A stretch of 64,000 nt of DNA from an uncultured Gammaproteobacteria bacterium. GTDB lineage: Bacteria; Patescibacteriota; Microgenomatia; UBA10105; UBA927. Positions 1,128 through 38,584 of the stretch are shown here, piece after piece (position 1 is the stretch's first letter; every line of letters starts with the position of its first letter). Made by a program: the position numbers and the translations under genes. Location of the stretch: positions 42,921 through 106,920 of the forward strand of contig CAYGFH010000004.1 in NCBI GenBank assembly GCA_964349125.1, written 5' to 3'. Under the pieces are notes generated by a model. It searched no databases and was not told the DNA's origin. It saw nothing but the letters and a program-made list of their open reading frames with translations.

Positions 1128-1134
1128 TTCGTTC

Positions 1135-1162: not shown

Positions 1163-1174
1163 CAACATATATAT

Positions 1175-2782: not shown

Positions 2783-3989
2783 AATCCTGCCAAAAACTAT
2801 ATCCTTCGTTGCGATCCTGCTGCTTTTCCTTACAGCTGGTGTATCAAAGGCGTTTGCAACTCCTAGCGTCCAATTTGATAAAACATCTGTCTCTGTTGCA
2901 CAAGATGCCACTTTTCAACTAAAAGTTAACATAAATGTGGATGCGCACACAGTTTTGGGAAGTGATGCTGTTATCAATTACGCCGGAAGCGATCTGGAAG
3001 TAATATCCATAACAAACGGTGGATTTTTTCCCGAATTCAACAGTGCCAATGCTGCATCAGGGAGACTTGAAATTCATGGGTATACATCTTCCACAAATGA
3101 CAGCCGTACAGGAAACGGTATACTTGCCACTATCGTATTTAAGGCAAAAAAAGGAAGCGGAAGCAGCGCTGTAACGTTTGCATGCACAGGATCAGGTAAC
3201 GATACAAATATTTTAACGACAGCAGGACAGAATGTATTGGCGTGCTCACAGACAAATACAGCCGGCATATCATACACAGGTGTCACGAATACCAACACAC
3301 CTACCCCTACAACTGGATCAGGTAATACTCCCACCCCAACACAAAAGCCTTCAGGTAACACTGCTCCGAATTGTTCCAATCTGTATACTGATATATCCTC
3401 TGCTGTGGGAGCACCTCAGACTATCACACTGACCTGCTCCGGTGCTGATCCGGGTGGATATTTGAACGCTGCGGAATTTGTATTTGGAGATGGTACCACC
3501 CAGGTGGTAGAGAAAAATGCAGGGAGCCCGGGCTCCATTGCTACTGCTCATACGTATACAACAATCGGGACACTCGGCGCATCATGCAGAGTCCGCGATA
3601 ACGATGGGATATGGTCAACCATACCCGATTCATGTAAGAAAGTTGTAAGTATAAAACCAGGATCCACCCCCACCCCTACACAAGCAAGATCATATGGAGA
3701 TAAGGGCGTGACCACCACCATCAAGGTAAGCGGGCCAACACCCACACCAACTAGAATTGTTGTGAGTATTATTTCTGACACTCCGGAACCTACCGTTTCG
3801 ATTGATGAAGGCATTGCTGAACCTACGCTATACCCAGAGGAAGAATCTATAGAATCAGACACCACAACTTCGTCCAACAGAATATGGTGGATCGTAGGAG
3901 GCATCATAGCCATATTGCTTGCATTCCTATTACTGCGACGTAAGGGACCACCACCTTCAGGAGGACAAATCCCAATCGCAAATGTATAA
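2775..3989 (+). CDS. Surface protein: signal peptide, cohesin-like domain, PKD-like domain, PT-linkers, C-terminal transmembrane anchor
   Basis: Signal peptide ending VSKAFA. Cohesin-like segment YAGSDLEVISITNGGFFPEF. PKD-like FVFGDGTT...AHTYTTIGTLGASCRVRDNDG. C-terminal TM IWWIVGGIIAILLAFLLL followed by basic residues. 8-nt overlap with the upstream gene suggests an operon. Confidence 0.6.
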   Translation: MNKILPKTISFVAILLLFLTAGVSKAFATPSVQFDKTSVSVAQDATFQLKVNINVDAHTVLGSDAVINYAGSDLEVISITNGGFFPEFNSANAASGRLEIHGYTSSTNDSRTGNGILATIVFKAKKGSGSSAVTFACTGSGNDTNILTTAGQNVLACSQTNTAGISYTGVTNTNTPTPTTGSGNTPTPTQKPSGNTAPNCSNLYTDISSAVGAPQTITLTCSGADPGGYLNAAEFVFGDGTTQVVEKNAGSPGSIATAHTYTTIGTLGASCRVRDNDGIWSTIPDSCKKVVSIKPGSTPTPTQARSYGDKGVTTTIKVSGPTPTPTRIVVSIISDTPEPTVSIDEGIAEPTLYPEEESIESDTTTSSNRIWWIVGGIIAILLAFLLLRRKGPPPSGGQIPIANV

Positions 3990-8888: not shown

Positions 8889-9122
8889 ATGGAAAAGCCA
8901 ACAATACCGAAAGTGCAAAGTATCTCTGAACGACTCGGACGAAATGGACCAGTTACCTTTTTTCAGGAGGTTGTATCGGAACTCAAGAAAGTAACGTGGC
9001 CAAGTCGCGATGAAACAATGAAATTAACTGCTGTCGTTATTGCTCTTTCTGTCATTGTCGGTGTATTTATCGGCGGATTGGATGCAATACTAGTACAGGC
9101 ACAAAAAATGGTATTCAAATAA
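8889..9122 (+). CDS. secE: Preprotein translocase subunit SecE
   Basis: ELKKVTWPSRDET followed by a single TM helix (LTAVVIALSVIVGVFIGGLDAIL) is the SecE signature. The ORF-track start at 8862 is preceded by no promoter, and the -10 box lies inside it. Confidence 0.8.
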   Translation: MEKPTIPKVQSISERLGRNGPVTFFQEVVSELKKVTWPSRDETMKLTAVVIALSVIVGVFIGGLDAILVQAQKMVFK

Positions 9123-9202
9123 CGATACTGAATATTGGATTTTACGATGATTGAGGAAATCCGAACGTCGATAATCCACGATTTAGCATCAACTATTATA
9201 GT

Positions 9203-9829
9203 ATGACAGATCAACAGACAACCAAAAAGGAAGCACAATCAGAAGGATATGTCCATCCAAGTGCACCTCCTGTTTCCGAAAGTACAACTCCACGGGTAGC
9301 CCCATCGAACGCGAAATGGTATGTGGTTCATACATATTCAGGACATGAAAATAAAGTATCAGCAAATTTAAAACAGCGTATAGAGACCATGAAATTGCAA
9401 GATAAAATTTTCGATATCGTCGTGCCAACTCGCAATATCGTAACGGTTAAACATGGTAAAAAAGAAGAGCAAAAAGAAAAAATCTTTCCCGGATATATTC
9501 TGGTAAAGATGCTCCTTGAGGACGATTCCTGGCTGGCAGTCCGAACAACACAAGGCGTGACAGCATTTGTAGGAGTTGGAAACAAACCAACCCCTATCTC
9601 TGAGAGCGAAGTTGCGACGATTTTGAAATTCATGCAACTTGAAGCTCCAAAATACAAAACATCGTTCTCTACAGGCGAAGCAGTTAAGATCGTGGATGGA
9701 CCATTTGCTGATTTCCTTGGTACCATCGATTCTATCGATGAGGAGAAAGGCAAGATCAAAGTTCTCGTATCCATATTCGGAAGAGAAACTCCTGTCGAGT
9801 TAGACTTCTTGCAGGTCTCAAAGCTTTAA
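9203..9829 (+). CDS. nusG: Transcription termination/antitermination factor NusG
   Basis: NGN domain WYVVHTYSGHENKV...IFPGYILVKM and KOW GEAVKIVDGPFADFLGTIDSID. Conserved position after secE. Confidence 0.9.
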   Translation: MTDQQTTKKEAQSEGYVHPSAPPVSESTTPRVAPSNAKWYVVHTYSGHENKVSANLKQRIETMKLQDKIFDIVVPTRNIVTVKHGKKEEQKEKIFPGYILVKMLLEDDSWLAVRTTQGVTAFVGVGNKPTPISESEVATILKFMQLEAPKYKTSFSTGEAVKIVDGPFADFLGTIDSIDEEKGKIKVLVSIFGRETPVELDFLQVSKL

Positions 9830-10255
9830 ATTGGGATTATTCGCATTGCTATTTCACTGTTTTATTCTCCGTAATCGAGCACTGACGTCGCTTTGCGTTC
9901 GCTTGATGTTGATTTCAAACGTAACCCAGTCGCAGTGAGCAGAACTGCTTGCGACACGATTCATAGGCACCCAATATCTCAGATTGCTCAAATTCTGGAT
10001 CGGATTTCATTTAAACAGCTTTGCTTTTCGCGCAGAGTGTATGACGTGATATTACATCATTTAAAACATATACGATAAGAAACGAGGAAACATCTGCAGC
10101 GGAGTCTAACTCACGCGCGTTCTAGTTATAGAGTTATACGACGCTAGTACGGGCTGAATTCACGGCAACGTAATCGAATATTGGATTCTCTCTATCTTTT
10201 GAAACTATCCTAAAAGGATTTCGCTGGGCAACGAGTAAAACAAGGATACGTGCCA

Positions 10256-11476
10256 TTACAGCGATTTGTAGTATACGTAGGCACCAAATCCGACAGCAAC
10301 CAATATCATAATGAAGAGAAGCACTCCAAACCAATTAACTTTTGCACCGGCGATAACATTGAATGTCTGTGTCACCTGTCCCTGTCCATCATCTTTTTTA
10401 GATACTACAACCACATCTTTTTTGCCAGCGCTCAGCGCCTTATCTGGCCTCCAGGTCCACTTACCTGTGGTATCTGCCGTCACGGTACCGCTGATACCGT
10501 CAGGGAATACCGAGATAGTCACGGTGGCTCCAGGCTCTGTCATACCACTAAATGTCGGACGATCGGATGCGTTTCCATTTGTATCTCCAACGGATGATGC
10601 TGTCAGTACTATCTGTCTTCCTGATCCGATAGGATTAAGTTCATTTATGGTTGGGACAACCGAGAGTGATCCACCAGTCGGAGAATCGTTACAGAGACAG
10701 GATATATTTTCCTTACAATACGCATTTCGGCATGTTTTCCCTAAACCTAATACACCACCACCGGCGCATACTAAACCACCGGGGCATTCACTATCATTTG
10801 AACAGGATTTATTGCAATAATTAAGCACATAAACGGTTGGTGTCGGTGAGGATGTCATAAATACTGTCGGCTTTGGTGTCGCAGTATTGTACGAGACGCG
10901 GGTTGGCGTCGGCGTCTTCGTAGGTGTTTTTGTTGGTGTGCTCGAAGATGTCGGATACGGTGTGTATGTGGGATATGGTGTATATGTTGGCTGCACTGTC
11001 GGCACCGATGTTGGAGTATTTGATACTGCAGTTGTAGGTACAGGGCTGTTCGTAGGATATATACATGATCCCCAATATTCCCCGTTTGCGCATGCTGTCA
11101 TGTTTGTCGTCCACTGAGCTCCAGCAGATGGGCAGCAATATTTCTGACCACCACATAATCCTATTCTCCCTGCAGAATTACATAGTTGGACATCACCATC
11201 TGGCTCTGCTGGGCAATTCGTAACATTCACTATCTGCCAATACCCTCCGGATTGGCATTGATTACAGCTTGCAGAATTACAGGAAGCAGCTTTTTGCCGA
11301 TTATCTGTTGAACGACCAGCAGCCATTAGCAGTACAACAAGGGCAATCAGTAATCCAAATAATCCAATAAGTGCACCCAAATTTGGCCAAAGAACCGCAG
11401 AAGTGGAACGCGAAGAACGTACTCCGCGGGATACTTTTTTCTTTTTCGTTGATATTTTATTACTATACTTTGCCAT
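10256..11476 (-). CDS. Doubly anchored Cys-rich surface protein with PT/YTPYPT linkers and Ig-like domain
   Basis: N-terminal K/R-rich tail plus TM (LGALIGLFGLLIALVVLLMAA). Cys-rich modules, YTPYPTYTPYPT and TPTKTPTKTPTPT linkers. C-terminal TM FGVLLFIMILVAVGFGAYVYY. ATG at 11476 preferred over the GTG at 11491. Confidence 0.6.
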   Translation of the reverse strand: MAKYSNKISTKKKKVSRGVRSSRSTSAVLWPNLGALIGLFGLLIALVVLLMAAGRSTDNRQKAASCNSASCNQCQSGGYWQIVNVTNCPAEPDGDVQLCNSAGRIGLCGGQKYCCPSAGAQWTTNMTACANGEYWGSCIYPTNSPVPTTAVSNTPTSVPTVQPTYTPYPTYTPYPTSSSTPTKTPTKTPTPTRVSYNTATPKPTVFMTSSPTPTVYVLNYCNKSCSNDSECPGGLVCAGGGVLGLGKTCRNAYCKENISCLCNDSPTGGSLSVVPTINELNPIGSGRQIVLTASSVGDTNGNASDRPTFSGMTEPGATVTISVFPDGISGTVTADTTGKWTWRPDKALSAGKKDVVVVSKKDDGQGQVTQTFNVIAGAKVNWFGVLLFIMILVAVGFGAYVYYKSL

Positions 11477-11573
11477 CAATTCCGGTGACACGCTCTATGC
11501 ATCAGCCACCATATCTATAATCACGCAACTGCGTCAGAATTTCAAGTGTGGAAATTAGCCGTGAGAAGCATCT

Positions 11574-11749: not shown

Positions 11750-12178
11750 ATGGCAGCAAAAAAAGTTAAAACAATCATAAAAATCAATCTTAAAGCGGGC
11801 GAAGCAACCGCAGCGCCTCCAGTCGGGCCGGCTCTCGGACAGCATGGACTTCCTATCATGGAGTTCGTGAAAGCCTACAATGAGAGAACAGCAAAACTCA
11901 AAGGTCAGACCATCCCAGCGGTTATTACCGTATTTGAAGACCGGACCTTTACGTTTATCACCAAGCTCCCTCCTGTATCAGCCATGATCATCAAAACCCT
12001 CGGTATTGCCAAGGGTGGCGGCAAAGCAGGACGTGAGTCAGCGGGTAAACTTTCCAAGGATCAGGTTCGACAGATTGCCACAGACAAGTTGCCGGATATG
12101 AACGCAAACGATGTGGAAGCCGCAATTAAAGTAGTAAGTGGAACTGCCCGAAGTATGGGCGTTGAGGTGGAGGCATAA
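11750..12178 (+). CDS. rplK: 50S ribosomal protein L11
   Basis: MAAKKVKTIIKINLKAGEATAAPPVGPALGQHGLPIMEFVKAYN is canonical L11. Confidence 0.95.
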   Translation: MAAKKVKTIIKINLKAGEATAAPPVGPALGQHGLPIMEFVKAYNERTAKLKGQTIPAVITVFEDRTFTFITKLPPVSAMIIKTLGIAKGGGKAGRESAGKLSKDQVRQIATDKLPDMNANDVEAAIKVVSGTARSMGVEVEA

Positions 12179-12179
12179 T

Positions 12180-12989
12180 ATGGGAAAAATTCGTGTCGCT
12201 AAACTAGGTGATGAATCAGCAGAAAAAGAGCAGAAAAGAAAAGCTGAAGCCCGTCGCCAAACAAAAGAGTCAAAAAAAATAAAAACTGACGAGTCAGAGA
12301 CTGAAACTACAGCTGTTGTATCTGAAGTTTCCGAAAAATCTGAACCACAATCAAAAAAGAAAAAGGAAACAAACATCAAGGCAAAAGGCCATTCAAAAAA
12401 ATATATTGAGATGTCCTCTTTGGTTGATAAACAAAAGATTTATAGTATTTCTGAGGCTGTATCACTGGTAAAGCAGACCAGTCTCACAACTTTTGACGGT
12501 ACAGTTGAACTCCATATAAATGTGAACCCACAGACTCTGGGAGATAAGAAAGATCTGCGTGGCAGCGTGACGCTTCCCCACGGTACAGGAAAGCAAATCC
12601 GTGTGGTTATAGCTGATGAAGCGATTATTGCTGAGATAGAGGCCGGGAAAATTAATTTTGATATTCTCGTGGCGCACCCAAGCATGATGCCGAAGCTGGC
12701 AAAGGTAGCCAAAGTGTTGGGTCCGAAAGGACTTATGCCGAATCCTAAAAACGGTACGGTCTCCCCTGACCCTGAAAAACGTGTGAAGGATCTCTCAAAC
12801 GGCCAGGTAAACTTTAAAACAGAACCTGACAACCCAATTGTCCATATGATCGTTGGGAAAGTATCATTTGATGATGCGAAACTTGCTGAAAATGTCAAAG
12901 CAGTATTTGCTGCAATTGGCACAAGTAAGATCATCAGAACAACCATAACAGCAACCATGGGACCAGGTGTCAAAGTTGCAACCTCGTAG
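12180..12989 (+). CDS. rplA: 50S ribosomal protein L1 with ~65-aa Lys/Glu/Ser-rich N-terminal extension
   Basis: Core TLPHGTGKQIRVV...VLGPKGLMPNPKNGTV is canonical L1. ATG 12180 follows the SD ggaggtggagg. The ORF-track GTG start at 12138 overlaps rplK and is rejected. Confidence 0.9.
   Translation: MGKIRVAKLGDESAEKEQKRKAEARRQTKESKKIKTDESETETTAVVSEVSEKSEPQSKKKKETNIKAKGHSKKYIEMSSLVDKQKIYSISEAVSLVKQTSLTTFDGTVELHINVNPQTLGDKKDLRGSVTLPHGTGKQIRVVIADEAIIAEIEAGKINFDILVAHPSMMPKLAKVAKVLGPKGLMPNPKNGTVSPDPEKRVKDLSNGQVNFKTEPDNPIVHMIVGKVSFDDAKLAENVKAVFAAIGTSKIIRTTITATMGPGVKVATS
12935..12988 (+). repeat. Direct repeat copy 1 (intact 3' end of rplA) bounding an inserted element
   Basis: 54 bp, 50/54 identical to 16471-16524. 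Confidence 0.85.
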
Positions 12990-13002
12990 TATTTCGTACC
13001 AT

Positions 13003-13031
13003 TTGCGTTACTTAGTCCTATAGTTTATAAT
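13003..13031 (+). promoter_or_regulatory. Possible promoter TTGCGT-17-TATAAT for leaderless ATPase gene
   Basis: Perfect -10 at 13026-13031, 7 nt before ATG 13039; -35 is weak. Confidence 0.3.
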
Positions 13032-13038
13032 TGCGCGC

Positions 13039-16000
13039 ATGAGTCGCGAAATGATGTCTCCGTTGGCCGGTTCCATTATGATTGATGGGGTCGATCCCTT
13101 TTTACCTCCAGAAAGCATGGAGCACATGCAATTTGATGATGCTATTTTACGTCGCCAAAGAATTATATTTTCATCAGAAATCGTACCGAGTATTCAAATA
13201 TTCTTATCTGGGGGCACAAACGAAGAAAGACAAGACGCTTATGCAAAACTGTCGTTCGCATTATGGGGTATATATAGATTAAAAAATATTCAAACGGAAT
13301 CTGAATATCCGTGGGAACAGTCTTGGCTTGCCTCTCAGGGACAATCAGAATGGACACCGAATCTGATAGAAAAGTCCCCTTCACAATATGAAATGGCACA
13401 TACCTATTTTTCAAACCTACTGATACCAGCAGATGTATTGGACAGTATGGATTTGCTTCACCTTTCCCAAAAAGAACATTCAGGAATACAGGGGGTTAAA
13501 AAAATCATACATGACAGCACATCACAATTTTTAGCAAGTTTACCGACCGACGCAATGATTACATTTGGCATGGAAGCATTGTCAACTACATTCGCCAATT
13601 CCAATGACTCAATCAGAACAATTGTCACGTCAGCCTTATATCCCCTGATAACCCAATACAAAGCGCAACACTCCAGTGTTGTGTATCATTTCGCTAATCA
13701 GATGCGGGTTGCACGCGAATATGTCACCTCGGTACTTAAAAACTTTTTCGACTCACCCCTGCGCCAACAGTTACTGTCAGAGACGATGAATATACATGAT
13801 CTTGATGCCGCTCATGTTGTAAGCAGTGGATTGTCTGCTGCACTTGACGAGCACGCGTTTACTACTGGATTGCTTCAGTTTAAAAGCACGGTACACGGTC
13901 AAAAAAATGGGGGCATTCTCGCATCTGCTGCATTTTTGACTCCTTTCCCCTTTTTCTATACACAGGCTAGTACCCGCATCGGAGAGCTACTTCGCACACG
14001 TATTGCGTCCAGAAACATTCACGAAATCGCGCCGTCACTTACCGAAAAACACGCCAGAGTCCGCGAAGCGGCATATGCATATCTAAACTTACCTGAATCT
14101 GCAGACATTGCAGAAATACAAAAAGCAGAAGCTAAAATAATTGAGGCAGGCAATACACGGAACCTCTCGCTACTTAGAACGAATCAGCAAACATCTAAAG
14201 ATCGCGCCTGGTTTAAAAGCCTACCGTCGAGCATAGCGTTATTATTGTCCGCTACACGAAATGACGAGCTCATCCAATATGTAACCCCTGTCGCACTTAC
14301 AAGCGGCTCTATGCTAACGGCAATAGGTGACAGCACATCAATGCTCGTTATGCGAAGTATAAACCGAGCGGATACCGATGCCGCCTACACGACCGTCCGA
14401 CAAGCACTTACTCATCTCACAAAACGATTTGGAGAGTTACACCTACCACCTCCCGGGACTGATTATGGTCCATTACCCAATCGAATAACTGTGACCATAA
14501 ATCGCACGAAAAACGGTCAGTTGCCAGTGTTTTCTCAATTACAGTTAGATCCGGGTATAACCGTGTTGACAGGAGAAACCGGTAAAGGAAAATCCACCGT
14601 GATGGATATCATTCACGGAATACACGCACTCGGAAACTACGCCACCATAAACGCTGCCGATATGAATGATATTAGAAATTTCTACGCGTATGACCGTTGG
14701 CAACGTCGTGTAAAGACGGTCTCGGTCAACTTCTCTTTCGGCAGCACACTATCGAGTGAAATCACTCGAAAAATAGTAGCTGGAGAACATGATGGTATTC
14801 AACGAACGATCAATGACTTATTAAGTGACGAACATTCTAATCATCAATATTTGTCACATCTGCTTGACTTATTGACTGATCCGTTAAAAAATCATGAACT
14901 TGCAACCGTACTAGAATCCTGGAAGCAGTCATTATCAACAGAAACGCATACAGAACAGACTCAACCGCTCATAGCCGCGCTTAATGCAGTAATTAAGCAA
15001 TATTTTTCTCAATTCTTTGACGCGAATGAACATGATCGTATAGATCAATTCATGACGACAACCTTTTCAACGAACATGGCAGCTTCTACCGGACAACGAG
15101 CACGAATTGGCCTCGCATTATCGCTTATGTCAGATGCCGATATGTATTTATTCGATGAGATTTCAGGAAACCTAGATACCAAAACCACCGTAAAAATTGC
15201 AGATATACTTCTACAATTCATTGCATCACATAAACAATCGAAATTTATACTTTCTATTCATGATCCAATATTTCTTAATAAAATTTGGGCGTTTGGACCA
15301 CAAAGAATATACGACTTTGATACCTCATCTGTTTGGGAAAACTCTACTGATGTTGAAAATTTTGTGGATACAATACAAAGCAGGATACTACAGACGGAGC
15401 AGGCACAGTCATTTACAGCTGAATCTGCACATGAGTTACTACAGGCACTTTCACATCATCTTGACGCATGGGATAAGGAGAGTCTCAATGAATACACCCT
15501 CGAACAATTAATACATACGGTTGATATTGTACGGGTTATGTTATCAAAGACGAATATGCATGTATTACAGCATAATATCAACCCATCCGCTCGATTTGAT
15601 GAGTATTTTGATAGTGTGATTGCCCCGATTCACAAAACGCTATATCGCATCGCGGACACAGTATTTACTAAGCGCATTTGGGAACTGCTCAAGAATAATA
15701 ATACAATGCCCTGGTATACACTCAATCAAATTCACAAGCTCGTATGGCAAATGAATCAAATTGGACTGATCTCAAAAGGCATCATTCCTGAATCAACAAG
15801 AACGGCTCGAGATTATTCTAAAGATGCATTTTTTAATTGGCAGGACTATGTTCGTGGTAAACGAGTCATGGTAAAAGATTTTACAGGACTCGCTAACCAT
15901 AAATACCAGGTAAAATCACTATTTGCAGATACAACATTTGAAAGAAATATTCGACATCTTCGTATAAATCATCTTGCAAAAATATTTTCCGACTTCAGAT

Positions 16001-16407
16001 CTACACCATCATATATCACACAGACTGTTTCTACAAAACTGTTACGAAGTGATTTGCTGTCCGGATTACTTTCAGGTAGCGCAGTATCCAATCAATCGAA
16101 CTACGGAATGGATATATTAGGTCAAAGAGTGTCGAGACTGGTGGCTCACTTACTCATGGAAGTGAAGACCAATCCTGTGTTTGCCGAGGAGACCGAACGC
16201 ATTATACGTAACATTACGACAGAGATCTTGCCGGATTTTTTGAAGCAGCGGGGTGTAAAAATGACCAACGTATCACAATGGATGTCTCATTGGGTGGCTC
16301 AAAACGATCCTCGCGTTCAGTCTATTTTGTTAACGGAACTGCCGAAATATCCGTCTATAGCACATGAATATATTTCTCTGCTTAAAAAATGTGATCAGAT
16401 ACGATAG
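13039..16407 (+). CDS. Large (1122 aa) soluble protein with central ABC-type ATPase domain (RecF/SMC/AAA_21-like) flanked by ~490-aa N- and ~370-aa C-terminal regions of unknown function
   Basis: Walker A ITVLTGETGKGKSTV, signature-like STGQRARIGLALSL, Walker B/D-loop MYLFDEISGNLD and H-loop FILSIHD in the expected order and spacing; no TM segments. Confidence 0.7.
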   Translation: MSREMMSPLAGSIMIDGVDPFLPPESMEHMQFDDAILRRQRIIFSSEIVPSIQIFLSGGTNEERQDAYAKLSFALWGIYRLKNIQTESEYPWEQSWLASQGQSEWTPNLIEKSPSQYEMAHTYFSNLLIPADVLDSMDLLHLSQKEHSGIQGVKKIIHDSTSQFLASLPTDAMITFGMEALSTTFANSNDSIRTIVTSALYPLITQYKAQHSSVVYHFANQMRVAREYVTSVLKNFFDSPLRQQLLSETMNIHDLDAAHVVSSGLSAALDEHAFTTGLLQFKSTVHGQKNGGILASAAFLTPFPFFYTQASTRIGELLRTRIASRNIHEIAPSLTEKHARVREAAYAYLNLPESADIAEIQKAEAKIIEAGNTRNLSLLRTNQQTSKDRAWFKSLPSSIALLLSATRNDELIQYVTPVALTSGSMLTAIGDSTSMLVMRSINRADTDAAYTTVRQALTHLTKRFGELHLPPPGTDYGPLPNRITVTINRTKNGQLPVFSQLQLDPGITVLTGETGKGKSTVMDIIHGIHALGNYATINAADMNDIRNFYAYDRWQRRVKTVSVNFSFGSTLSSEITRKIVAGEHDGIQRTINDLLSDEHSNHQYLSHLLDLLTDPLKNHELATVLESWKQSLSTETHTEQTQPLIAALNAVIKQYFSQFFDANEHDRIDQFMTTTFSTNMAASTGQRARIGLALSLMSDADMYLFDEISGNLDTKTTVKIADILLQFIASHKQSKFILSIHDPIFLNKIWAFGPQRIYDFDTSSVWENSTDVENFVDTIQSRILQTEQAQSFTAESAHELLQALSHHLDAWDKESLNEYTLEQLIHTVDIVRVMLSKTNMHVLQHNINPSARFDEYFDSVIAPIHKTLYRIADTVFTKRIWELLKNNNTMPWYTLNQIHKLVWQMNQIGLISKGIIPESTRTARDYSKDAFFNWQDYVRGKRVMVKDFTGLANHKYQVKSLFADTTFERNIRHLRINHLAKIFSDFRSTPSYITQTVSTKLLRSDLLSGLLSGSAVSNQSNYGMDILGQRVSRLVAHLLMEVKTNPVFAEETERIIRNITTEILPDFLKQRGVKMTNVSQWMSHWVAQNDPRVQSILLTELPKYPSIAHEYISLLKKCDQIR

Positions 16408-16470
16408 TTTAAAATCTTTTGGTCCATCTGTCTGTTTCATTTAAAAAACATAAATGTATCTCCGCCGCTT

Positions 16471-16524
16471 CAAAACAACGATAACAGCAACCATGTGAAC
16501 AGGTGTCAAAGTTGCAACCTCGTA
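16471..16524 (+). repeat. Direct repeat copy 2 (degenerate pseudo-copy of rplA 3' end)
   Basis: 54 bp with 4 mismatches to 12935-12988; contains an in-frame TGA. Confidence 0.85.
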
Positions 16525-16568
16525 ACAGTTGACACTGGATCTGCTACAGTAGTGTATACTCATATCGT

Positions 16569-16787
16569 ATGGATATACCAGACTCATCCACAGAGTATCA
16601 AACACCCGTTCCCGATACTACAGTCTCTGCAGAACCTGTTACGGCTCCGTTCCAACTGAGCGAAGAGGAGAGAAAACGCGCAAAAATGATGATGCAATTG
16701 CAGGGAGCACATCAATTTTTCGCTACCATATCCAAAGGCTTACTCAAAATACTGGAAGATCTCTCATCCCACATCCTCAAGAGATAG
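16569..16787 (+). CDS. Small hypothetical protein (72 aa)
   Basis: ORF only; acidic N-terminus and a predicted helix; no motif. Confidence 0.3.
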   Translation: MDIPDSSTEYQTPVPDTTVSAEPVTAPFQLSEEERKRAKMMMQLQGAHQFFATISKGLLKILEDLSSHILKR

Positions 16788-16864
16788 TATCAGGTATCAT
16801 TGACATTTCTCCTGGCCTCTGAGATTCTATAGTGAGTATTAATATTAATATTTTCAGGCTAGCT

Positions 16865-18298
16865 ATGAAAAAAAATTCTATAACACCAATAACACTTATC
16901 GCTATCATCGTTTTGGCCGGAGGGGCCATGTTCCTACTCAATAGCAAACTAAACACGACATCCACCGAAGTTACCAAATCACAAGCATCTATGGCTGTAC
17001 CTAAGATTACTGAGACGTATAGTGATAATTTTAAGACGGAGGCACTCAATCAGAACAAATGGTCTATCAGTAAATCCTCGGACGTTTCAGCAGCACAAAC
17101 AGCAGGTAACAATCTTCGGATACAAATTCCTGAGGGAAATCAATCCGGTAAGCCAAAGACTGCATCGATCTTATTTAAGGAACACATGAAAGATAATGCC
17201 GATTTCAAAGCGATAGCAGTTCTCTATCGCCCAATTGTTACCGGAGCTGGTGGAGCTATTGAAGGATTGAGGTTTACTTCTAAAGGTGGACTAAACGATG
17301 AAGGCGCTTCAATTCGTTGGGTTGTCAATGGTGCTTCGAGTAAGGTTTCGTTTTCTGTTGCGGCCACGGATGGAACGGTTGTCGAAAGAAAATCCGTTGA
17401 TCTTCCGAGTAATGTGGCTATTTTCAGACTTGAACGAGTAAATAAATCGTATAGGGCATCTTATAAACTGGGAAATGATTTAACTTCTGATACTAACTGG
17501 ATTGTCCTAGGTGAAGAAACAAATGCTGCGCTCGGGGCAGACGGGTATGTGAGCCTTTTTGCTCATAACGGTGCCGTAAATAATCAGTTTCCGAAGGTAG
17601 CTGCACGATTTGATACAGTCAGAATCAGCTGGGAAGGAAAAGCTGCTCAGCCTTCTAACCGTATAAGCTATTCTGACGCATTCAGCAATGGGAGTATTGG
17701 TGGCAAATGGAAAGCATCTGCGACAACTGGAACAGCAATTGTTGAAACAGCAACGGATAATCTGTCGATGAATGTAGCTGCTGGAGCCGTGAATACCAAA
17801 CCACGGTCAGGGTGGGTAAAGAGAACTGAGCCGTTAGTCAAAAACAATACGAATTTCGCATTTACTGCTAAACTTTTTAAGCCCGTTGTAAAGGGAGATG
17901 GGTACGGTGTCTCAGCAGTATCGTTCCAGTCTGCAACCGCTGTTGATGACGAATCTGCTGCGGTGCGTTGGGTCGTCTCAAAAAATGAGAATGTAAGTAA
18001 ACTCGTATTCGTGGTAAAAGCACCGGATAATACGCTCCTTGAACGCGCCAGTATAGATATCAAGAATGCAGACCCCAAACGCCTGACTTTGCGTCTTACA
18101 CGAACTGGAGATAAATATTCAGCTGCCTATAGAGTCGGTGATAGCGATACAGACTTTGTATCAATCGGCAAGGAAGAAAACGGCCAGTTGGGGGCAGATG
18201 GACGCATAGTGCTTTCGACCAACAATACCGGTATAGGAAATAAGTATCCTCAGGTAATCGGCCGATTTGATTCTGTTACAGGGTGGGTTGCGAAATAA
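16865..18298 (+). CDS. Secreted/anchored protein with two tandem ~190-aa homologous beta-rich domains
   Basis: Signal anchor ITLIAIIVLAGGAMFLL. Two internal repeats share IRWVV-G/K-S-V-F-V...TDGTV/DNTLLER...FRL/LRLTR...Y-A-YK/RVG-D...LGADG...FP/YPQV.ARFDTV/GRFDSV. ATG 16865 preferred over GTG 16832. Confidence 0.6.
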   Translation: MKKNSITPITLIAIIVLAGGAMFLLNSKLNTTSTEVTKSQASMAVPKITETYSDNFKTEALNQNKWSISKSSDVSAAQTAGNNLRIQIPEGNQSGKPKTASILFKEHMKDNADFKAIAVLYRPIVTGAGGAIEGLRFTSKGGLNDEGASIRWVVNGASSKVSFSVAATDGTVVERKSVDLPSNVAIFRLERVNKSYRASYKLGNDLTSDTNWIVLGEETNAALGADGYVSLFAHNGAVNNQFPKVAARFDTVRISWEGKAAQPSNRISYSDAFSNGSIGGKWKASATTGTAIVETATDNLSMNVAAGAVNTKPRSGWVKRTEPLVKNNTNFAFTAKLFKPVVKGDGYGVSAVSFQSATAVDDESAAVRWVVSKNENVSKLVFVVKAPDNTLLERASIDIKNADPKRLTLRLTRTGDKYSAAYRVGDSDTDFVSIGKEENGQLGADGRIVLSTNNTGIGNKYPQVIGRFDSVTGWVAK

Positions 18299-18299
18299 A

Positions 18300-18678
18300 T
18301 GTCACGAAAGTGGGAAAAGTAACAGAAAGTGCATCTGTACCTGTGGAGTTCAGATTCCCTTCCTCTTGAATGTATAGCCGATTTGCGCTATACTATACTC
18401 ACCCTAAAGATAGTAGGTTTCGCCTGTAAGGCGAATGAATTCGAAAGAGCCTACCGAAGGAACATAAGTAGTTAACGGTTTTTGTTTATAGTTCATAGTG
18501 ATACTATGACCAATGAACAAATAACCCTGAACGAATGTTTCCCGCTTTAGGCGGGATTTTTTGTGAATACTTAGCGAGTTTATTCCTATAAACGAGCTTA
18601 GTATGAACAATCCAGCGTAAGCTGGATACAGCTTGAAATATATCTAGCGAAGCTAGAAACATTATGTAAAGGAGATAT
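18300..18678 (+). promoter_or_regulatory. Structured rplJ 5' leader (L10-leader-like) with internal attenuator hairpin
   Basis: Conserved position upstream of rplJ; hairpins tcgcct-gtaa-ggcga, cccgc-tttag-gcggg plus T-run, and ccagc-gtaa-gctgg. Confidence 0.35.
18538..18563 (+). terminator. Attenuator/terminator hairpin in the rplJ leader
   Basis: cccgc tttag gcggg followed by attttttg, about 115 nt before the rplJ ATG. Confidence 0.45.
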
Positions 18679-20810: not shown

Positions 20811-21237
20811 GGGTGCAATGTCTAAAATCTCTCAATGAATTTGAACAATTGGTACTGAAGACATTCTGTATACACTTCCCCACCATCCTGATAATTTTTT
20901 GCAACAATGACGAATATTTATTACTCTATATGACAATGATTTTATATCTAATTGAATACTTTTATTTTGTTACATGTCTTTATAGAGGATACGCCTCTCT
21001 GTATTGTCGTTTTACTGATGTCGTCGCCGTCATGATCAGCACTCATCAGTGCACTCAAAAATATTTTATAAAATCATTTCTATAAACCATGATTGCGTTT
21101 GATCCCTCTTGACAAGGTTTGATCATGGTTGTATTGTTGTGATTGCTATTGATTACTTTAAATTTTTCTTATAAATTTTAAAGTATGAACTGCCCTACAG
21201 CTTACATACAAAACATTTTGCCCCGGAGGAACTATCT

Positions 21238-21438
21238 ATGTCACTAGGTGATGAATGGCCAGACTTATTAACCGTACGAGAAGTTGCAAAAATACTACGA
21301 GTATCACCTCTTACGATAAAACGATGGGGCAAACGGGGAAAGCTTCCTGCGATCCGAATCAACTCACGCGGAGACCGCAGATATAAGAAAGAAGCTGTGA
21401 TGTGGCTTCTGGGATTACAACAAAAAGGGCAAGTTTAA
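21238..21438 (+). CDS. Excisionase/AlpA-like helix-turn-helix DNA-binding protein
   Basis: LLTVREVAKILRVSPLTIKRWGKRGKLPAIRI matches the phage excisionase-family HTH_17 pattern. Confidence 0.6.
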   Translation: MSLGDEWPDLLTVREVAKILRVSPLTIKRWGKRGKLPAIRINSRGDRRYKKEAVMWLLGLQQKGQV

Positions 21439-21488
21439 GACAGGTTTTGGTTATTAGTTAGATAGTTACTTGGTTATTGGTTGAATCG

Positions 21489-21848
21489 TTATTTAGCCTT
21501 AGAAATACTATTCTTTAGTGCAGTAATAGTTTTTGCCATACTATATATCCTATCGTATAGCTGTGTGAATTTAACCATGTCAACAACCTGTATATTTCGT
21601 GCGATTGTTAGTATTGCAATACATTCATAGCATGATCCTCGGGATATAGATAAAAAATGCGCGAAATCCTTACTCGTTCTTCCGGAACCTTCGGCAATAT
21701 TGAGTGGAATAGAAAGCGCAGCCCGCTGAATCTGATCAACTAGGCTGAATTTATATATCGTTGGCCATTCTTTAGTCAACGTGTACATCGTCGATACAAA
21801 ATCGATTGAATCCTGATAAATTCTAAGCTCATCAAACTTAAACTTCAT
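21489..21848 (-). CDS. Four-helix-bundle protein (23S rRNA intervening-sequence protein family)
   Basis: LRIYQDSIDF...LSIPLNIAEGSGRTSKDFAHFLSISRGSCYECIAIL signature; flanked by inverted tandem-repeat arrays. Confidence 0.75.
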   Translation of the reverse strand: MKFKFDELRIYQDSIDFVSTMYTLTKEWPTIYKFSLVDQIQRAALSIPLNIAEGSGRTSKDFAHFLSISRGSCYECIAILTIARNIQVVDMVKFTQLYDRIYSMAKTITALKNSISKAK

Positions 21849-21908
21849 CAATAACAGTATCTCACAACATATCTAAGTAACCAAGTAACTAACTATCCAA
21901 GTAACTAA

Positions 21909-22724
21909 TTACTCTATAATCGCTTCACCGTGAACGCCTACTTTTTTCATCGGCTTTGCGGTCTGCCATACGTAATCAAATATTTGCGTCTGCATATGTG
22001 CAAGCTCTTTGTTGTGAATCTCTACACAAAATTCTTCGCCCGTGCCATATTGATACATACAATACACATCATTATAAATAAGCACTTCAAATTTCATTGC
22101 CAATAATTTAGGATCAACGTATCGTACAATCCAATACTTCATGAGCTGAGTGACATCTGTATACGGTGAAATGTGTTTCACACCTGTTAGTTGATGAGTT
22201 ATGATACTCCTTTTGACCAATTCCTCCCGTATCGTCTCACTAAAATCCTGAGGTAAAAATACAGACATACTGTCATATTTTTCATAAATTCGTAAAATCC
22301 CATTGGCATTCAGTGAATTCCATGTCACGTGCTTAAGACCATCTATCCCATGATGATAAAATACTTTTGATCTCTCACTCCCCGACCCTATAATTGCTGA
22401 TAATTGGTTAAATAACGATGGCATAGATGCACGAAGATTGTTCACCTGTTGTTCTTTTTCAGTGAGCAATAATTCCAACTGGGTATATGGGGTTGCCTGA
22501 AATTTAAGTCCGGGATGATCTAATTGCTGCGTCACAAGACCTTTCGTTAATAGTTTGTCCAAAAGTCTGTACACACGCGTTCGAGCCATATGAAGATCAC
22601 GACTGATAGCGAGGGCGGATTGTGAGTGTTTTTGAAGCAAATTGAGGTATATTTTTGCTTCTTCAGCTGTTAAACCAAACGAAACAAGAGTCTTCGAAAG
22701 TATGTCTGTTTGATCGGACATCAT
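21909..22724 (-). CDS. TrmB-family transcriptional regulator
   Basis: N-terminal winged HTH GLTAEEAKIYLNLLQKHSQSALAISRDLHMARTRVYRLLDKLLTKGLV plus TrmB-type C-terminal domain. Confidence 0.65.
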   Translation of the reverse strand: MMSDQTDILSKTLVSFGLTAEEAKIYLNLLQKHSQSALAISRDLHMARTRVYRLLDKLLTKGLVTQQLDHPGLKFQATPYTQLELLLTEKEQQVNNLRASMPSLFNQLSAIIGSGSERSKVFYHHGIDGLKHVTWNSLNANGILRIYEKYDSMSVFLPQDFSETIREELVKRSIITHQLTGVKHISPYTDVTQLMKYWIVRYVDPKLLAMKFEVLIYNDVYCMYQYGTGEEFCVEIHNKELAHMQTQIFDYVWQTAKPMKKVGVHGEAIIE

Positions 22725-22726
22725 GT

Positions 22727-22754
22727 TTGTACTATACGTCTATTACCCTATAAT
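22727..22754 (+). promoter_or_regulatory. Promoter TTGTAC-16-TATAAT for leaderless membrane-protein gene, divergent from the TrmB gene
   Basis: -10 22749-22754, ATG at 22763. Confidence 0.45.
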
Positions 22755-22762
22755 TGTCAAAT

Positions 22763-23323
22763 ATGCACAAAACAGTCTTTTTATTATTAAGCACAATCCT
22801 TCCCCTGTGTTCCCCGTACGTGTACGTAAAATCAATTCTGCGAGGCATATCAAAACCACACAGAACCACCCGATTGGTATACCTGATTATTGGCCTTCTT
22901 ACCACGACATCCCTTCTGGCTTCGGGGAATATGACAGCACTTTATATTTCTGCAGCATCCCTCATTCAGTCGATAATCTTATACGGCTTAAGCTTCCGGT
23001 ATGGCATTGGCGGATGGGAAATGTCCAGCATCGTATGTTTAATTTGTGCGCTTACCGGCATTGCAGTATGGCAAATAACAAATAATCCGCTCATTGGATT
23101 ATATAGTGGAATCCTTGCTGATTTATTTGGATCGATACCAACAATTATTAAAACAATAAATGTACCTCATTCTGAAGAGCCGAAATTTTATGCTTTTGAT
23201 GCTCTTGCAGGTTTGTTTAATATTCTTGCCATTCCATCGTACACGTTTCAATCCGTATCCTATCCACTATATCTAGTATCTATTAATATGACCATTGCAC
23301 TACTGGCAGTTCGAAAAAAATAA
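22763..23323 (+). CDS. Polytopic membrane protein (paralog A)
   Basis: About 6 predicted TM helices; homologous to the next gene. ATG 22763 preferred over TTG 22754. Confidence 0.5.
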   Translation: MHKTVFLLLSTILPLCSPYVYVKSILRGISKPHRTTRLVYLIIGLLTTTSLLASGNMTALYISAASLIQSIILYGLSFRYGIGGWEMSSIVCLICALTGIAVWQITNNPLIGLYSGILADLFGSIPTIIKTINVPHSEEPKFYAFDALAGLFNILAIPSYTFQSVSYPLYLVSINMTIALLAVRKK

Positions 23324-23327
23324 TTCT

Positions 23328-23915
23328 ATGCTACAACTCGTCGGATATATTTCTGCAATATTGAGCATCGCAAGTGTAGCTCCGTATATACGTGACATCA
23401 TATCAAGGAAAACGATACCAGAACGCGCATCCTGGTTTATATGGAGCGTGCTTGGAGCTATTATGTTTTTTTCACAACTTTCAAAAGGAGCTAACGAATC
23501 ATTATGGTTTACTGCAGGCCAAACTATTGCGGTCTGTGCTGTATTTTTTCTTTCATTGCATTTTGGAACCGGCGGTTTTATCAGGAGAGATTACTATTCA
23601 TTAACCATTGCAGGTCTAGGTCTTTATCTTTGGTTTATCACCAGTGATGCGCTCTATGCAATGGTGCTCACGATTTTGGTAGATGCATCAGGAGCAATTC
23701 TTACAATCATTAAATCGTACCAAGAACCGGAAACTGAAACGATCAGTACATGGGTCATTTCCGGAACAAGTGGATTGTTCGGGATGCTTGCAGTGGGAGC
23801 GTGGAATCCGATTCTACTTTACTATCCTCTCTATATCGCATGCGTCAACTTCATCATCGCATCTGCAATACTCATGGGAAAATGGAAAAAAGAAACGTTG
23901 CTACACCAACTGTGA
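23328..23915 (+). CDS. Polytopic membrane protein (paralog B)
   Basis: About 6 predicted TM helices; tandem paralog of the previous gene. ATG 23328 lies 4 nt after the previous stop. Confidence 0.5.
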   Translation: MLQLVGYISAILSIASVAPYIRDIISRKTIPERASWFIWSVLGAIMFFSQLSKGANESLWFTAGQTIAVCAVFFLSLHFGTGGFIRRDYYSLTIAGLGLYLWFITSDALYAMVLTILVDASGAILTIIKSYQEPETETISTWVISGTSGLFGMLAVGAWNPILLYYPLYIACVNFIIASAILMGKWKKETLLHQL

Positions 23916-24224
23916 AGCAAAGCGTAAACCGTTTTTTCCAGCGCGTTTAGTATATTCATCACCGAACATGTTCGAACCATCTGGACAAAAAGTGTAATAT
24001 GGGTGGTAAGATCAACAATTATATGGCGTTGTATTGACGGGGCGATTGTACGCCATATAGATTCAGTTCTTTTAAAGGTAGTTTTGATGTAAATTACATC
24101 ATAGTATAAGATAAATACGAATAGATGCCGCCAAACGCAGAGTTTAATCATGTAGTCTTGATATGTATTTAGTGATATATTGATATTCTCTAGTTCGAGG
24201 GTATATTCGAATAAAGTTAAAACT

Positions 24225-24935
24225 ATGAGTGATCTTGATCCGAGCGTTTTTTCTATCCGGGAAACAGTAGAAAAATTCTTTCCACATAAAGTAAAGTATT
24301 TTTCCGAGCTATCAGATGAAGATATCGGTTTTATTACCAGACCCGGATATATTTCACACGCTATAAACCAGACTCATTTACTCACACATGTAACGCGGGG
24401 CAGAATTCAATCATTCGGAGATTCTCTCACCAAAAAATTTTTGCGAGTACATGTAACTGATCTTAGCGGTGAGACACTATTTATTTCAACAAAGTATCCC
24501 GGAATGAGATCAAATACTCTAAACGCTGGCGTTGTATTAACTGAGGATGCTGTACGGAAATCTTCATTACCTGGTATAAAAACAGACCAATTGTTGGATA
24601 TACTTCATCCCCTTATTGAATATCAAACCAATAACAAAGACATCTATTGGAATACTGAACAATTACCAAATGCGGTTACCTCTGGGATGTTAGGTCGATT
24701 ACGAAAATACGGATTTGAGATATTCCTTGAACAGGCTAAGGACAGCTCTGCAGTGGGAAGACTTTTTGCAACTTCACTTCGATATAGAATTGCACATGAA
24801 GGGCTGGATCCCCAATTAGATTTGCACATCGATCCATATCTTGGAGGGTTACTTTCACAACTTCATAACAATATGATTGTTCCCTTTTATCCGGATTTTC
24901 AGAATGATATACAGTTGATTATACTGAATACATGA
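24225..24935 (+). CDS. Hypothetical protein
   Basis: Long ORF with no recognisable motif; ATG 24225 preferred over TTG 24180. Confidence 0.4.
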   Translation: MSDLDPSVFSIRETVEKFFPHKVKYFSELSDEDIGFITRPGYISHAINQTHLLTHVTRGRIQSFGDSLTKKFLRVHVTDLSGETLFISTKYPGMRSNTLNAGVVLTEDAVRKSSLPGIKTDQLLDILHPLIEYQTNNKDIYWNTEQLPNAVTSGMLGRLRKYGFEIFLEQAKDSSAVGRLFATSLRYRIAHEGLDPQLDLHIDPYLGGLLSQLHNNMIVPFYPDFQNDIQLIILNT

Positions 24936-24946
24936 GGGTACCTGAA

Positions 24947-25822
24947 TCAGGGTATTTCAAGAAGTTCTAATGCTGCTTGTTTCGGAGATATGGTGTTGAC
25001 GCTTAACCCTGTCCCCAGCTCAAACCCCGCCCGATGAATGAACCGCGGAATGACGCGAATAAACCAGTGTTCTCCATGAGACACATAATAATTGTATACG
25101 AACGGATCCCTTTGCTCGGGCGTTTTGTGTTCCTGCCGGATATCATGTATGGTACGAAGCCGCTGTAGAGAACGCTGCAGCGCATCTGCAATATGAGGCA
25201 ACTCAGCATCGGTCACTGCTCCAAAATTTGTACTCTCGGATTCGGGAGCGATCCATATCTCATACGGCCACTGGGAAAAATCCGGACAGTAGCTGATAAA
25301 TCCATCTTTGGACTCAATCATATGTTGCACCGGCTCTCGGGAAAGTGAATCCAGCGTGATTTGTTTTGCTACGACCACAAGCTGACTGTGCGGGTGCTCG
25401 AGACTCGCCCCTGCGGTTTTTCCATTGTTACAGAAAATAATGACGTGCCCATCCCCCGCGTGTGCAACATACCGATCCCGATACGCTGTGACAATCCGAG
25501 TTGCTTGTTCCCGAGGCAGTTGGGAGATTTCATGCGTATGATCTGTGCTATGGATAAATACTTCATGCGTGTCCGTAATCGGAAATTTGTTTGGCACTAC
25601 CCTGACTTGCCATCCAGTTTCCTCTTTACCACCCATCCCGATTCTATACACTTCCGGAGGAGTCATGTGTTCATTTCCCGGACAAAAGGGACATACCTTC
25701 GTCCCGACGGACTTTGGGACTTCGCTGTGAGGCGAATCTTTCGTATCAGTAGGGCGATTTGTACGGGTCTCAGCGATTATCACCCACCGCTGTGTTTTGC
25801 TGTCTGGTATATATGTGGCCAT
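24947..25822 (-). CDS. galT: Galactose-1-phosphate uridylyltransferase-like HIT-family nucleotidyltransferase
   Basis: Zn-binding CPFCPGNEH and catalytic HPHSQ (HxHxQ) motifs. Confidence 0.75.
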   Translation of the reverse strand: MATYIPDSKTQRWVIIAETRTNRPTDTKDSPHSEVPKSVGTKVCPFCPGNEHMTPPEVYRIGMGGKEETGWQVRVVPNKFPITDTHEVFIHSTDHTHEISQLPREQATRIVTAYRDRYVAHAGDGHVIIFCNNGKTAGASLEHPHSQLVVVAKQITLDSLSREPVQHMIESKDGFISYCPDFSQWPYEIWIAPESESTNFGAVTDAELPHIADALQRSLQRLRTIHDIRQEHKTPEQRDPFVYNYYVSHGEHWFIRVIPRFIHRAGFELGTGLSVNTISPKQAALELLEIP

Positions 25823-33785: not shown

Positions 33786-33833
33786 AACTCACTTTATGCG
33801 ATTTACGATTCGCGGTTAGCGGTTTGCGAGGTT

Positions 33834-38583: not shown

Positions 38584-38584
38584 A

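Follow-up and report, generated by a model that had tools for sequence, protein, structure and literature searches.

Type IV ATP-binding cassette (ABC) half-transporters of the MsbA, Sav1866, EfrCD, CydDC and TmrAB class are built from a domain of six long helices followed by one nucleotide-binding domain (NBD) with a complete set of catalytic motifs. In the exporters HlyB, PCAT1/ComA, McjD and PrtD, such a core is combined with the concept of an added cytoplasmic cargo-recognition domain; in HlyB (C39-like) and PCAT1/ComA (C39 peptidase) this accessory domain is N-terminal and has a papain-like alpha/beta fold. SbmA is a hydrophobic integral membrane protein that lacks an NBD. An ABC-type P-loop and signature core is also found in accessory, patchily distributed anti-phage ATPases (PARIS AriA, GajA/OLD, PtuA, LmuB and mad3), and we know of none among them with an exporter-type helical domain before its NBD. 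Here we describe a gene for a protein of 1122 amino acids (aa) in a 64-kb stretch of contig CAYGFH010000004.1 (referred to as the window, meaning the whole stretch analyzed). As the best overall explanation, this protein probably descends from a type IV (exporter-type) ABC half-transporter, from which it has diverged strongly within a restricted lineage, and it is very likely that its architecture is exporter-derived and that it works as an ATP switch.

Like the type IV half-transporters, the protein places a six-long-helix domain before one NBD and carries all the catalytic NBD motifs, which by analogy would imply a homodimeric ATP switch. Unlike them, it lacks hydrophobic spans and similarity to the ABC_membrane profile, and it adds a conserved N-terminal module of 143 aa (the N-module), a C-terminal region of ~355 aa and a longer helical subdomain within the NBD. 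HlyB, PCAT1/ComA, McjD and PrtD are among its best structural matches and, like it, combine an exporter core with an additional domain; it differs from HlyB/PCAT1-type exporters in that its N-module is predicted to be all-helical, its large variable region is C-terminal, and no cargo, membrane-fusion or outer-membrane partner genes lie nearby. Compared with SbmA/BacA, it keeps the NBD and would have lost the hydrophobicity. It has the ABC-type P-loop and signature core and the accessory, patchy distribution of the anti-phage ATPases but not a Toprim, HNH or other nuclease domain or partner, nor a coiled-coil insertion. The gene and its immediate surroundings comprise the following features.

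12934..12988, plus strand: direct repeat copy 1, the functional 3' end of rplA (ribosomal protein L1), with the stop codon TAG at 12987-12989; the Ribosomal_L1 domain lies in open reading frame (ORF) 12138-12989
12990..13038, plus strand: spacer of 49 nt, apparently imported with the cassette, with a promoter-like TTGCGT-17 nt-TATAAT and the motif CCTATAGTTTATAATT at 13017-13032
13039..13467, plus strand: family-specific N-terminal helical module, residues 1-143, with invariant columns and a confident model over residues 31-160
13468..14439, plus strand: six-long-helix domain, residues 144-467, with the predicted fold of a type IV ABC exporter transmembrane domain (TMD) and the hydropathy of a soluble protein
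14476..15339, plus strand: ABC nucleotide-binding domain, residues 480-767, with a Pfam ABC_tran match, the motifs and invariant catalytic residues
15340..16407, plus strand: C-terminal region, residues 768-1122 and the stop codon, ~355 aa, predicted all-helical
16408..16469, plus strand: trailing spacer of the inserted segment, 62 nt, unrelated to rplA and without a terminator
16470..16524, plus strand: direct repeat copy 2, a relic of the ancestral rplA 3' end that has been displaced; it contains a TGA in frame as well as the ancestral TAA stop

ATPase core and predicted fold

The gene is an uninterrupted frame of 3,369 nt (13039-16407, plus strand) that runs from an ATG to a TAG and encodes 1122 aa. 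Within the protein, the Walker A stretch ITVLTGETGKGKSTV occupies residues 507-521 (Walker A proper 512-520), the signature-like motif STGQRARIGLALSL residues 683-696 (signature 683-686), the Walker B and D-loop stretch MYLFDEISGNLD residues 702-713 (Walker B 702-707, D-loop 709-713) and the H-loop FILSIHD residues 736-742, with H741 as the H-loop histidine. An initial annotation of this DNA had reported the same ORF and each of these motifs, and both were borne out. Pfam ABC_tran matches the protein at 36.1 bits against a curated cut-off of 25 (E 1.1e-8), so the ATPase motifs also pass a profile-based check, whereas SMC_N (32.9 bits against 40), AAA_23 (25.7 against 27) and AAA_21 (18.1 against 27) remain below their cut-offs. 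We therefore class the NBD, on its sequence, as transporter-class. Further sequence matches in NCBIfam and the PDB are to the NBDs of transporters, RLI/ABCE1, CFTR and ABC-F proteins, and the closest sequence relatives of the NBD include those of the exporters CydD, CydC and PrtD and of bacteriocin exporters (NCBIfam).

When 1.84 billion protein cluster representatives were scanned exhaustively with HMMER, five true relatives emerged, P0002-P0006 (1048-1198 aa, E 3e-80 to 4e-10), which are collinear with the 1122-aa protein over the N-terminal region and the ABC core; the remaining matches were generic NBD matches. ABC_tran matches all six family members, and G515, G517, K518, S683, G685, D706 and E707 are invariant at 17-25% identity across the family. 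The helical subdomain of the NBD is enlarged, with 165 residues from K518 to S683, ~60 more than usual. Model confidence, given as the predicted local distance difference test (pLDDT), is mostly 65-89 in the NBD and dips to 52-69 at residues 631-690 of this subdomain.

The six long helices that precede the NBD are 42-58 residues each (144-185, 190-237, 257-299, 303-349, 357-405 and 409-466) and form three hairpins directly before it. An AlphaFold2 model of residues 1-495, built on the six-sequence alignment, was all helical (pLDDT 79.6, predicted TM-score 0.74), and its structural matches were McjD (15.9), Rv1273c (15.5), HlyB (15.1), MRP1 (14.4), IrtA (14.2), PrtD (14.0), ComA (13.8), SbmA (13.8), CydDC (12.9) and MsbA (11.6). 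In the full-length model, pLDDT was mostly 60-90 across the helical domain and NBD, and Foldseek matched MsbA, CydDC, Atm1, IrtAB, TmrAB, TAP, McjD and PCAT1 over ~650-700 columns (E ~1e-11). In a library of viral structures, too, the best and only meaningful matches of the model were ABC transporters. These models predict that residues 144-467 adopt an exporter TMD fold immediately N-terminal to the NBD. The initial annotation had seen no recognizable motif in this region, where a clear fold is now predicted.

Two further details bear on the comparison with exporters. The short segments 240-247 (between helices 2 and 3) and 350-356 (between helices 4 and 5) lie, in the model, at the places expected of coupling helices. 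In addition, four of the six members carry the pattern T..IG....S.GQ before the signature at canonical spacing, which we take to be that of the exporter X-loop; in the 1122-aa protein the pattern is degenerate (TTTFSTNMAASTGQ).

Long helices joined to an ABC ATPase are also what an SMC/RecN/Rad50-like DNA-maintenance ATPase would show, with the helices as coiled-coil arms. The very long helices of the model, the SMC_N and AAA_23 scores (32.9 and 25.7 bits), a weak RecN P-loop match and weak SMC-head matches in the PDB agree with this idea. However, both Pfam scores are below the curated cut-offs of 40 and 27, and in SMC-type proteins the coiled coil separates Walker A from the signature, whereas here the long helices precede the whole NBD and the spacing is just 165 residues. 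The family contexts have no DNA-repair neighbors in common, and the homologs are not housekeeping genes of the SMC/RecN type, an outcome that would have counted against the initial annotation. We give this explanation next to no weight. Membership of the Lamassu LmuB/SMC/RecN group was rejected on the SMC_N score (32.9 against 40), the 165-residue spacing and the position of the long helices, which precede the NBD and match exporter TMDs.

The N-module holds the most conserved motifs outside the ATPase, namely PWEQSWL (91-97), SPSQYEMA (113-120) and P130. Its invariant positions in the alignment are W92, L97, P114, A120 and P130; those in the helical region are A209, N220, R223, G287, N382 and P396. 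Residues 31-160 are modeled at pLDDT 84-92, and the module has no match in Pfam, NCBIfam or PDB sequences.

The C-terminal region behaves differently. It is modeled at pLDDT 26-62, too low for any fold claim, and has no Pfam or PDB sequence match. In all-against-all phmmer comparisons of the six proteins, no two C-terminal regions pair at E <= 10, while almost all pairs of N-terminal and ABC parts match significantly (1e-6 to 1e-55), and the C-terminal alignment has no invariant column. We considered a diversity-generating retroelement as the source of this variability and rejected it, as the window holds no template/variable-repeat pair and the scanned ORFs no reverse transcriptase. The GC content of the coding parts for the NBD and the C-terminal region is ~0.39, against 0.44 in the N-terminal part (residues 1-495) and in the remainder of the window.

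Hydropathy and relation to the membrane

Membrane character was judged by 19-residue Kyte-Doolittle (KD) means. The 1122-aa protein peaks at 1.25, within the range of the cytosolic enzymes transketolase, glucose-6-phosphate dehydrogenase and carbamoyltransferase from the same window (1.23-1.28) and well short of real membrane anchors (2.0-3.0). Its six best peaks are 0.48-1.25, against 1.4-2.9 in genuine exporters. At the putative bilayer positions (20 residues on each side of the hairpin turns), the mean KD is -0.08 to 0.68, and 17 of these 120 positions (6 x 20) are charged. The protein thus has no set of six hydrophobic membrane-spanning segments; only the hairpin tips near residues 185-190, 300 and 406 are weakly hydrophobic. 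The relatives are intermediate, with at most one transmembrane (TM)-like segment each, always at a hairpin tip. The initial statement that there are no TM helices is accurate at the level of hydropathy. Its companion term "soluble" was inferred from hydropathy alone and is not confirmed, and the step from no TM helices to no transporter, and on to an OLD/Gabija/PARIS/Septu/AbiE-like ATPase, fails on the transporter-class NBD and the predicted exporter-type fold.

Could the protein nevertheless be a genuine membrane-embedded homodimeric exporter of a peptide, protein or polar lipid-linked substrate, with unusually polar TM helices and a C-terminal region that selects cargo or regulates? An exporter TMD fold followed by an NBD in canonical order is what the model predicts. 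What hydrophobicity remains coincides with the three hairpin tips, the very places at which the helices of exporters traverse the bilayer; the values of the relatives become TM-like at these tips, with a mean KD of 1.68-1.70 for helix 4 in P0004-P0006 and a peak of 2.12 in P0006; and the T..IG....S.GQ pattern is present in four of six members at what is presumably X-loop spacing. Set against this, no 19-residue window of the protein exceeds 1.25, its putative membrane positions include the 17 charged residues, its hydropathy cannot be told apart from that of cytosolic enzymes of the same genome (real anchors reach 2.0-3.0), no member gives a Pfam ABC_membrane signal, and there are no partner transport genes nearby. 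Since the polarity of the predicted spans equals that of cytosolic enzymes, we think it somewhat more likely than not that the protein is not a conventional integral exporter, and we regard the membrane-embedded alternative as rather unlikely. We lean, at little better than an even chance, toward a soluble or shallowly membrane-attached ATP-gated clamp.

A loss of hydrophobicity could also reflect relaxed selection on a decaying, functionless exporter remnant, and an unconserved C-terminal region with a low-confidence model might even suggest a spurious ORF. This is contradicted by the uninterrupted 3,369-nt frame, by a conserved upstream element (described below) and by six full-length collinear members (1048-1198 aa) that keep all catalytic residues and several N-module motifs at ~20% identity, which requires long-term purifying selection. 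Decay or a spurious frame is therefore highly improbable.

Several observations weigh against the derivation from an exporter and against a clamp that has left the membrane. The fold assignment depends on AlphaFold2 models from just six sequences. Pfam ABC_membrane (PF00664) is not matched at E <= 1 in any of the six members, and hhalign of the helical domain against genuine exporter TMDs gave a probability of 17.8% in global and 2.7% in local mode; the link between the helical domain and exporter TMDs is thus not detectable by sequence. The KD mean is the sole hydropathy scale used. Single segments of the relatives reach or approach TM-like values (2.12 in P0006, 1.71 in P0005 and 1.64 in P0002), and their hairpin tips are Gly-rich; because of these two properties, the family could be membrane-embedded in an unusual manner. 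Finally, the lost similarity of the C-terminal regions could simply reflect weak constraint at ~20% overall identity.

If the protein is an exporter-derived clamp, the established mechanism of ABC proteins suggests how it may work. Two copies would form a head-to-tail NBD dimer that holds two ATP, each clasped by one subunit's Walker A and its partner's signature. NBD closure and hydrolysis (catalytic residues E707 and H741) would be passed through segments 240-247 and 350-356 to the three hairpins, so that the six-helix domain would alternate between two states. The clamp would have retained the exporter chassis, with the hairpin tips near 185-190, 300 and 406 as the only candidates for membrane contact, and the divergent C-terminal region would supply specificity for a ligand or trigger.

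The family, its genomic contexts and a possible defense role

The family is rare. A word-indexed search with the full protein returned only the protein itself and one with the N-domain profile returned nothing, while matches to a six-member profile were swamped by double-NBD CydCD transporters. No further copies were found in metagenome or viral contigs, nor by tblastn in phage and plasmid collections or in 80 rplA loci. P0004 lies immediately after rplK-rplA in another Gottesmanbacteria-like contig (L083; L1 67% identical), just as the 1122-aa gene does in the window. P0006 adjoins sufB/sufD, P0002 is flanked by a tatAC/fn3 gene group and greA/lysS, P0003 is flanked by a phospholipase D (PLD)-family gene and diacylglycerol kinase, and the contig of P0005 carries the family gene only. 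Across these five contexts there is no conserved partner gene, and each copy is solo. The window copy is the only one bounded by repeats: the contigs L081, L082 and L085 have no significant flanking repeats at the family gene, and L083 ends at the gene.

Two neighboring genes carry domains that are common in defense and mobile contexts but generic and not conserved across the family. In L082, a PLD-family nuclease-like protein with a DrmC/MkoB-type domain is encoded near the family member (2649-3689, minus strand; E 4e-14), and L085 encodes an M78 peptidase of CapP/RmrA-like type (8958-9467, plus strand; E 2e-21).

The initial annotation had proposed the gene as the best candidate in this DNA for a novel single-gene defense, addiction or stress module. 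With the predicted fold added, this would be a single-gene anti-phage or abortive-infection module in which the C-terminal region senses, the ABC core switches and an exporter-derived, membrane-perturbing helical domain acts as the N-terminal effector. Such a module would fit the very patchy distribution (six members in 1.84e9 representatives), the horizontal insertion with its own promoter-like element (below), the mutually dissimilar C-terminal regions beside a conserved chassis, and the PLD-family nuclease or M78 peptidase near two relatives. PADLOC also gave weak matches over the ABC core, to mad3 (E 1.8e-17), AriA (3e-5), LmuB (2e-5) and PtuA (2.5e-4). These matches, however, are confined to the generic P-loop and signature lobes, and the Pfam profiles AAA_21, AAA_23 and SMC_N are below their cut-offs while ABC_tran is above its own. 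No nuclease, HEPN, TIR, SIR2 or protease domain was detected in the family proteins, and no copies were found in the phage, plasmid and viral collections searched. The contexts offer little more, with no partner gene conserved across the five, only housekeeping neighbors in the window, L081 and L083, no defense island in any of these three, and only the generic PLD and M78 domains in L082 and L085. What stands of the initial proposal is an accessory, horizontally inserted single gene of a rare, patchy family; evidence for a defense function is weak, and the window contains neither a nuclease partner or domain nor a defense island. We consider a single-gene defense module improbable. A broader accessory role in conflict or host interaction, rather than housekeeping, would fit the rarity of the family, the horizontal insertion, the promoter-like element and the mutually dissimilar C-terminal regions, and here we judge the chances to be even.

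Membership of named defense systems was rejected case by case. For OLD/Gabija GajA, in which an ATPase of the AAA_21/AAA_15 type is joined to a Toprim nuclease domain, the AAA_21 score of 18.1 bits falls short of the cut-off of 27 and Toprim is not matched; the PADLOC ATPase-Toprim model gives weak matches (6.5e-4) in two relatives only. For Septu, in which the PtuA ATPase is encoded beside the HNH nuclease PtuB, the PtuA matches are at E 2.5e-4 or weaker and cover residues 500-580 only, with no HNH gene in the insertion or its flanks. PARIS consists of the ABC ATPase AriA and an adjacent TOPRIM nuclease, AriB (PMC11464382); here AriA matches at E 3e-5 over the generic core, and the neighbors are rplA, a 72-aa ORF and a 488-aa protein without a PADLOC or Toprim match. 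MADS is a multi-gene operon (mad1-mad8) of which mad6, mad7 and mad8 are regarded as mandatory by its authors (10.1101/2023.03.30.534895). The ABC core is recognized by the mad3 model in each of the six members (best E 1.8e-17); mad6, mad7 and mad8 are absent here, and the family gene is solo in all five contexts.

Duplicated rplA ends and a candidate cassette

The 1122-aa gene lies within the host gene order nusG - rplK - rplA - [X] - rplJ - rplL. It is flanked by att-like direct repeats at the 3' end of a conserved gene: the two 55-nt copies of the rplA end are 93% identical and 3,536 bp apart (blastn-short: 51 nt, 94%, E 1.75e-18). In a close relative, L002, the site is empty, with rplA followed directly by a small ORF, a homolog of the window's 488-aa gene (55% identical) and rplJ. 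The TAA stop in copy 2 is the one found in the rplA of relatives, and the window sequence after copy 2 is collinear with L002 after its rplA stop (...TGTATA..TATCGTATGGAT...). For these two reasons, the sequence comparison identifies copy 2 as the displaced ancestral rplA end and the 3,536-bp single-gene segment as inserted. No ORF between the repeats other than the 1122-aa gene exceeds 104 aa. Together with the repeats and the empty site, this agrees with the earlier description of a repeat-bounded insertion that has the gene as its sole cargo. Scans of the insert and of 39 window ORFs revealed neither an integrase nor a transposase domain, and no tRNA or Rfam element lies near the insertion. 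From rplA to 18540 (plus strand) there is no terminator-like site except a weak intragenic match at 13068-13093.

The spacer ahead of the gene carries a distinctive element. TTGCGT-17 nt-TATAAT and the motif at 13017-13032 end 6 nt before the ATG, which suggests that the gene has its own promoter. No Shine-Dalgarno sequence is visible in the 49-nt spacer, so the transcript may possibly be leaderless. Both the window and L083 (2204-2219) carry CCTATAGTnTATAATT just before the start codon of the family gene, with 15 of 16 positions matching even though the proteins are only ~20% identical. The motif occurs once in the window, where 0.18 chance matches are expected, and its 13-nt core is found in 1 of 85 fetched loci (~1.3 Mb), namely in L083, directly upstream of the family member. 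Variants around the palindrome CTATAG, next to a TATAAT box, precede three other members (L082, L084 and L085), and the CTATAG-centered element lies 5-12 nt before the start codons of family members. The element may serve as a promoter, as an operator or as a site of recombination. A generic promoter motif was rejected because the motif is unique in the window and its core was found in only one of the 85 loci.

The gene arrived as a self-contained 3,536-bp cassette that combines one ORF with a promoter-like element. It is likely to have come from another Gottesmanbacteria-like genome in which, as in L083, the gene already followed rplA. In the simplest route, a circularized donor fragment would have integrated by a single crossover through homology at the rplA 3' end, and recombination within the last ~55 nt of rplA would have duplicated that segment. 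Alternatively, a site-specific recombinase may have acted in trans.

The L1 protein of the window is 80% identical to those of two uncultured metagenome-assembled genomes and ~55-67% to those of named Gottesmanbacteria; the window thus belongs to a Patescibacteria genome close to Candidatus Gottesmanbacteria. A second, independent duplication of an rplA 3' end is present in L019 (10843-10879 and 11309-11345; 37 nt, 89%; blastn-short 32 nt, 94%, E 1e-9), where it flanks a 466-bp insertion with a single 120-aa ORF (10943-11305). Across Gottesmanbacteria-like relatives, the interval between rplA and rplJ varies in length from 5 bp to 4.4 kb, and the orphan ORFs within it are unrelated. The site thus looks like a hotspot for cassette insertion within a core ribosomal operon.

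Several other observations concern this operon. Variable rplA-rplJ intervals are 12989-18678 in the window, 3249-7399 in L001, 10894-12361 in L019, 1714-4111 in L023 and 6382-10810 in L024. The gap in L001 contains ORFs of 676, 132 and 506 aa without a Pfam match, and the enlarged gap in L024 contains, at 9395-10296, three copies of a 29-42-nt sequence (TTCGCTGCGGGACTGAAGACC...) at intervals of 505 and 347 bp, together with a 62-nt repeat. In the window, a 72-aa ORF (16569-16787) and the 488-aa protein (16832-18298) lie between the insertion and rplJ; L002 has both at its empty site, so they predate the insertion in this spacer. The 488-aa protein has an N-terminal hydrophobic anchor (19-residue KD mean 2.34) of secreted type and no Pfam or PADLOC match, and its gene is followed by a terminator-like hairpin at 18540-18556. 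The L1 protein (12138-12989) has 283 aa, with an N-terminal extension of ~85 aa that aligns only to Gottesmanbacteria-like relatives, while in other bacteria the similarity starts only at about residue 85; with the listed start codon (GTG at 12138), this ORF and the end of rplK overlap. Between nusG and rplK, on the opposite strand, lies a gene for a 411-aa membrane-anchored Big_13/Big_6 Ig-like protein (10256-11491, minus strand), whose position is kept in most Gottesmanbacteria-like relatives and is an unusual break in the nusG-rplK linkage.

Elsewhere in the window, three consecutive genes with cohesin, dockerin and PKD domains and internal repeats of 94-118 nt (48-3989) form a cellulosome-like surface module, unusual in a reduced genome of the candidate phyla radiation. 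A 50-nt intergenic element with many GCGATT/ACGATT/GCGTTT units occurs three times (33787-33836, 38577-38626 and 43970-44019; 62-76% identical), each time at the upstream (5') end of a minus-strand gene. The stretch 21000-25000 has a low GC content (0.37-0.39 against ~0.44 elsewhere) and encodes a TrmB-family regulator and consecutive ORFs of 189, 206 and 251 aa without a Pfam match; it may be another acquired segment.

A more specific picture, which we put forward tentatively and consider doubtful as a whole, is that of a "de-lipidated" exporter: a Patescibacteria-restricted family that keeps the chassis, has lost membrane embedding and serves as a cytosolic or membrane-surface clamp with a target-selecting C-terminal domain, plausibly in phage or host conflict, spreading as a promoter-plus-ORF cassette into the 3' end of rplA, which would be a repeatedly used site of insertion in Gottesmanbacteria-like genomes. 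The TMDs of ABC exporters are regarded as obligate membrane machinery. If the picture is true, the alternating-access chassis would be reusable outside the bilayer, and structural biologists would gain a naturally soluble model of an exporter core; if the protein is merely an ordinary exporter of odd composition, its interest would be modest. The family also adds two unassigned parts, the conserved N-module and the non-conserved C-terminal region, to the pool of orphan proteins of ultra-small episymbiotic bacteria. The duplicated rplA 3' ends in the window and L019, together with the variable rplA-rplJ spacer, point to a previously unremarked cassette hotspot in a core ribosomal operon.

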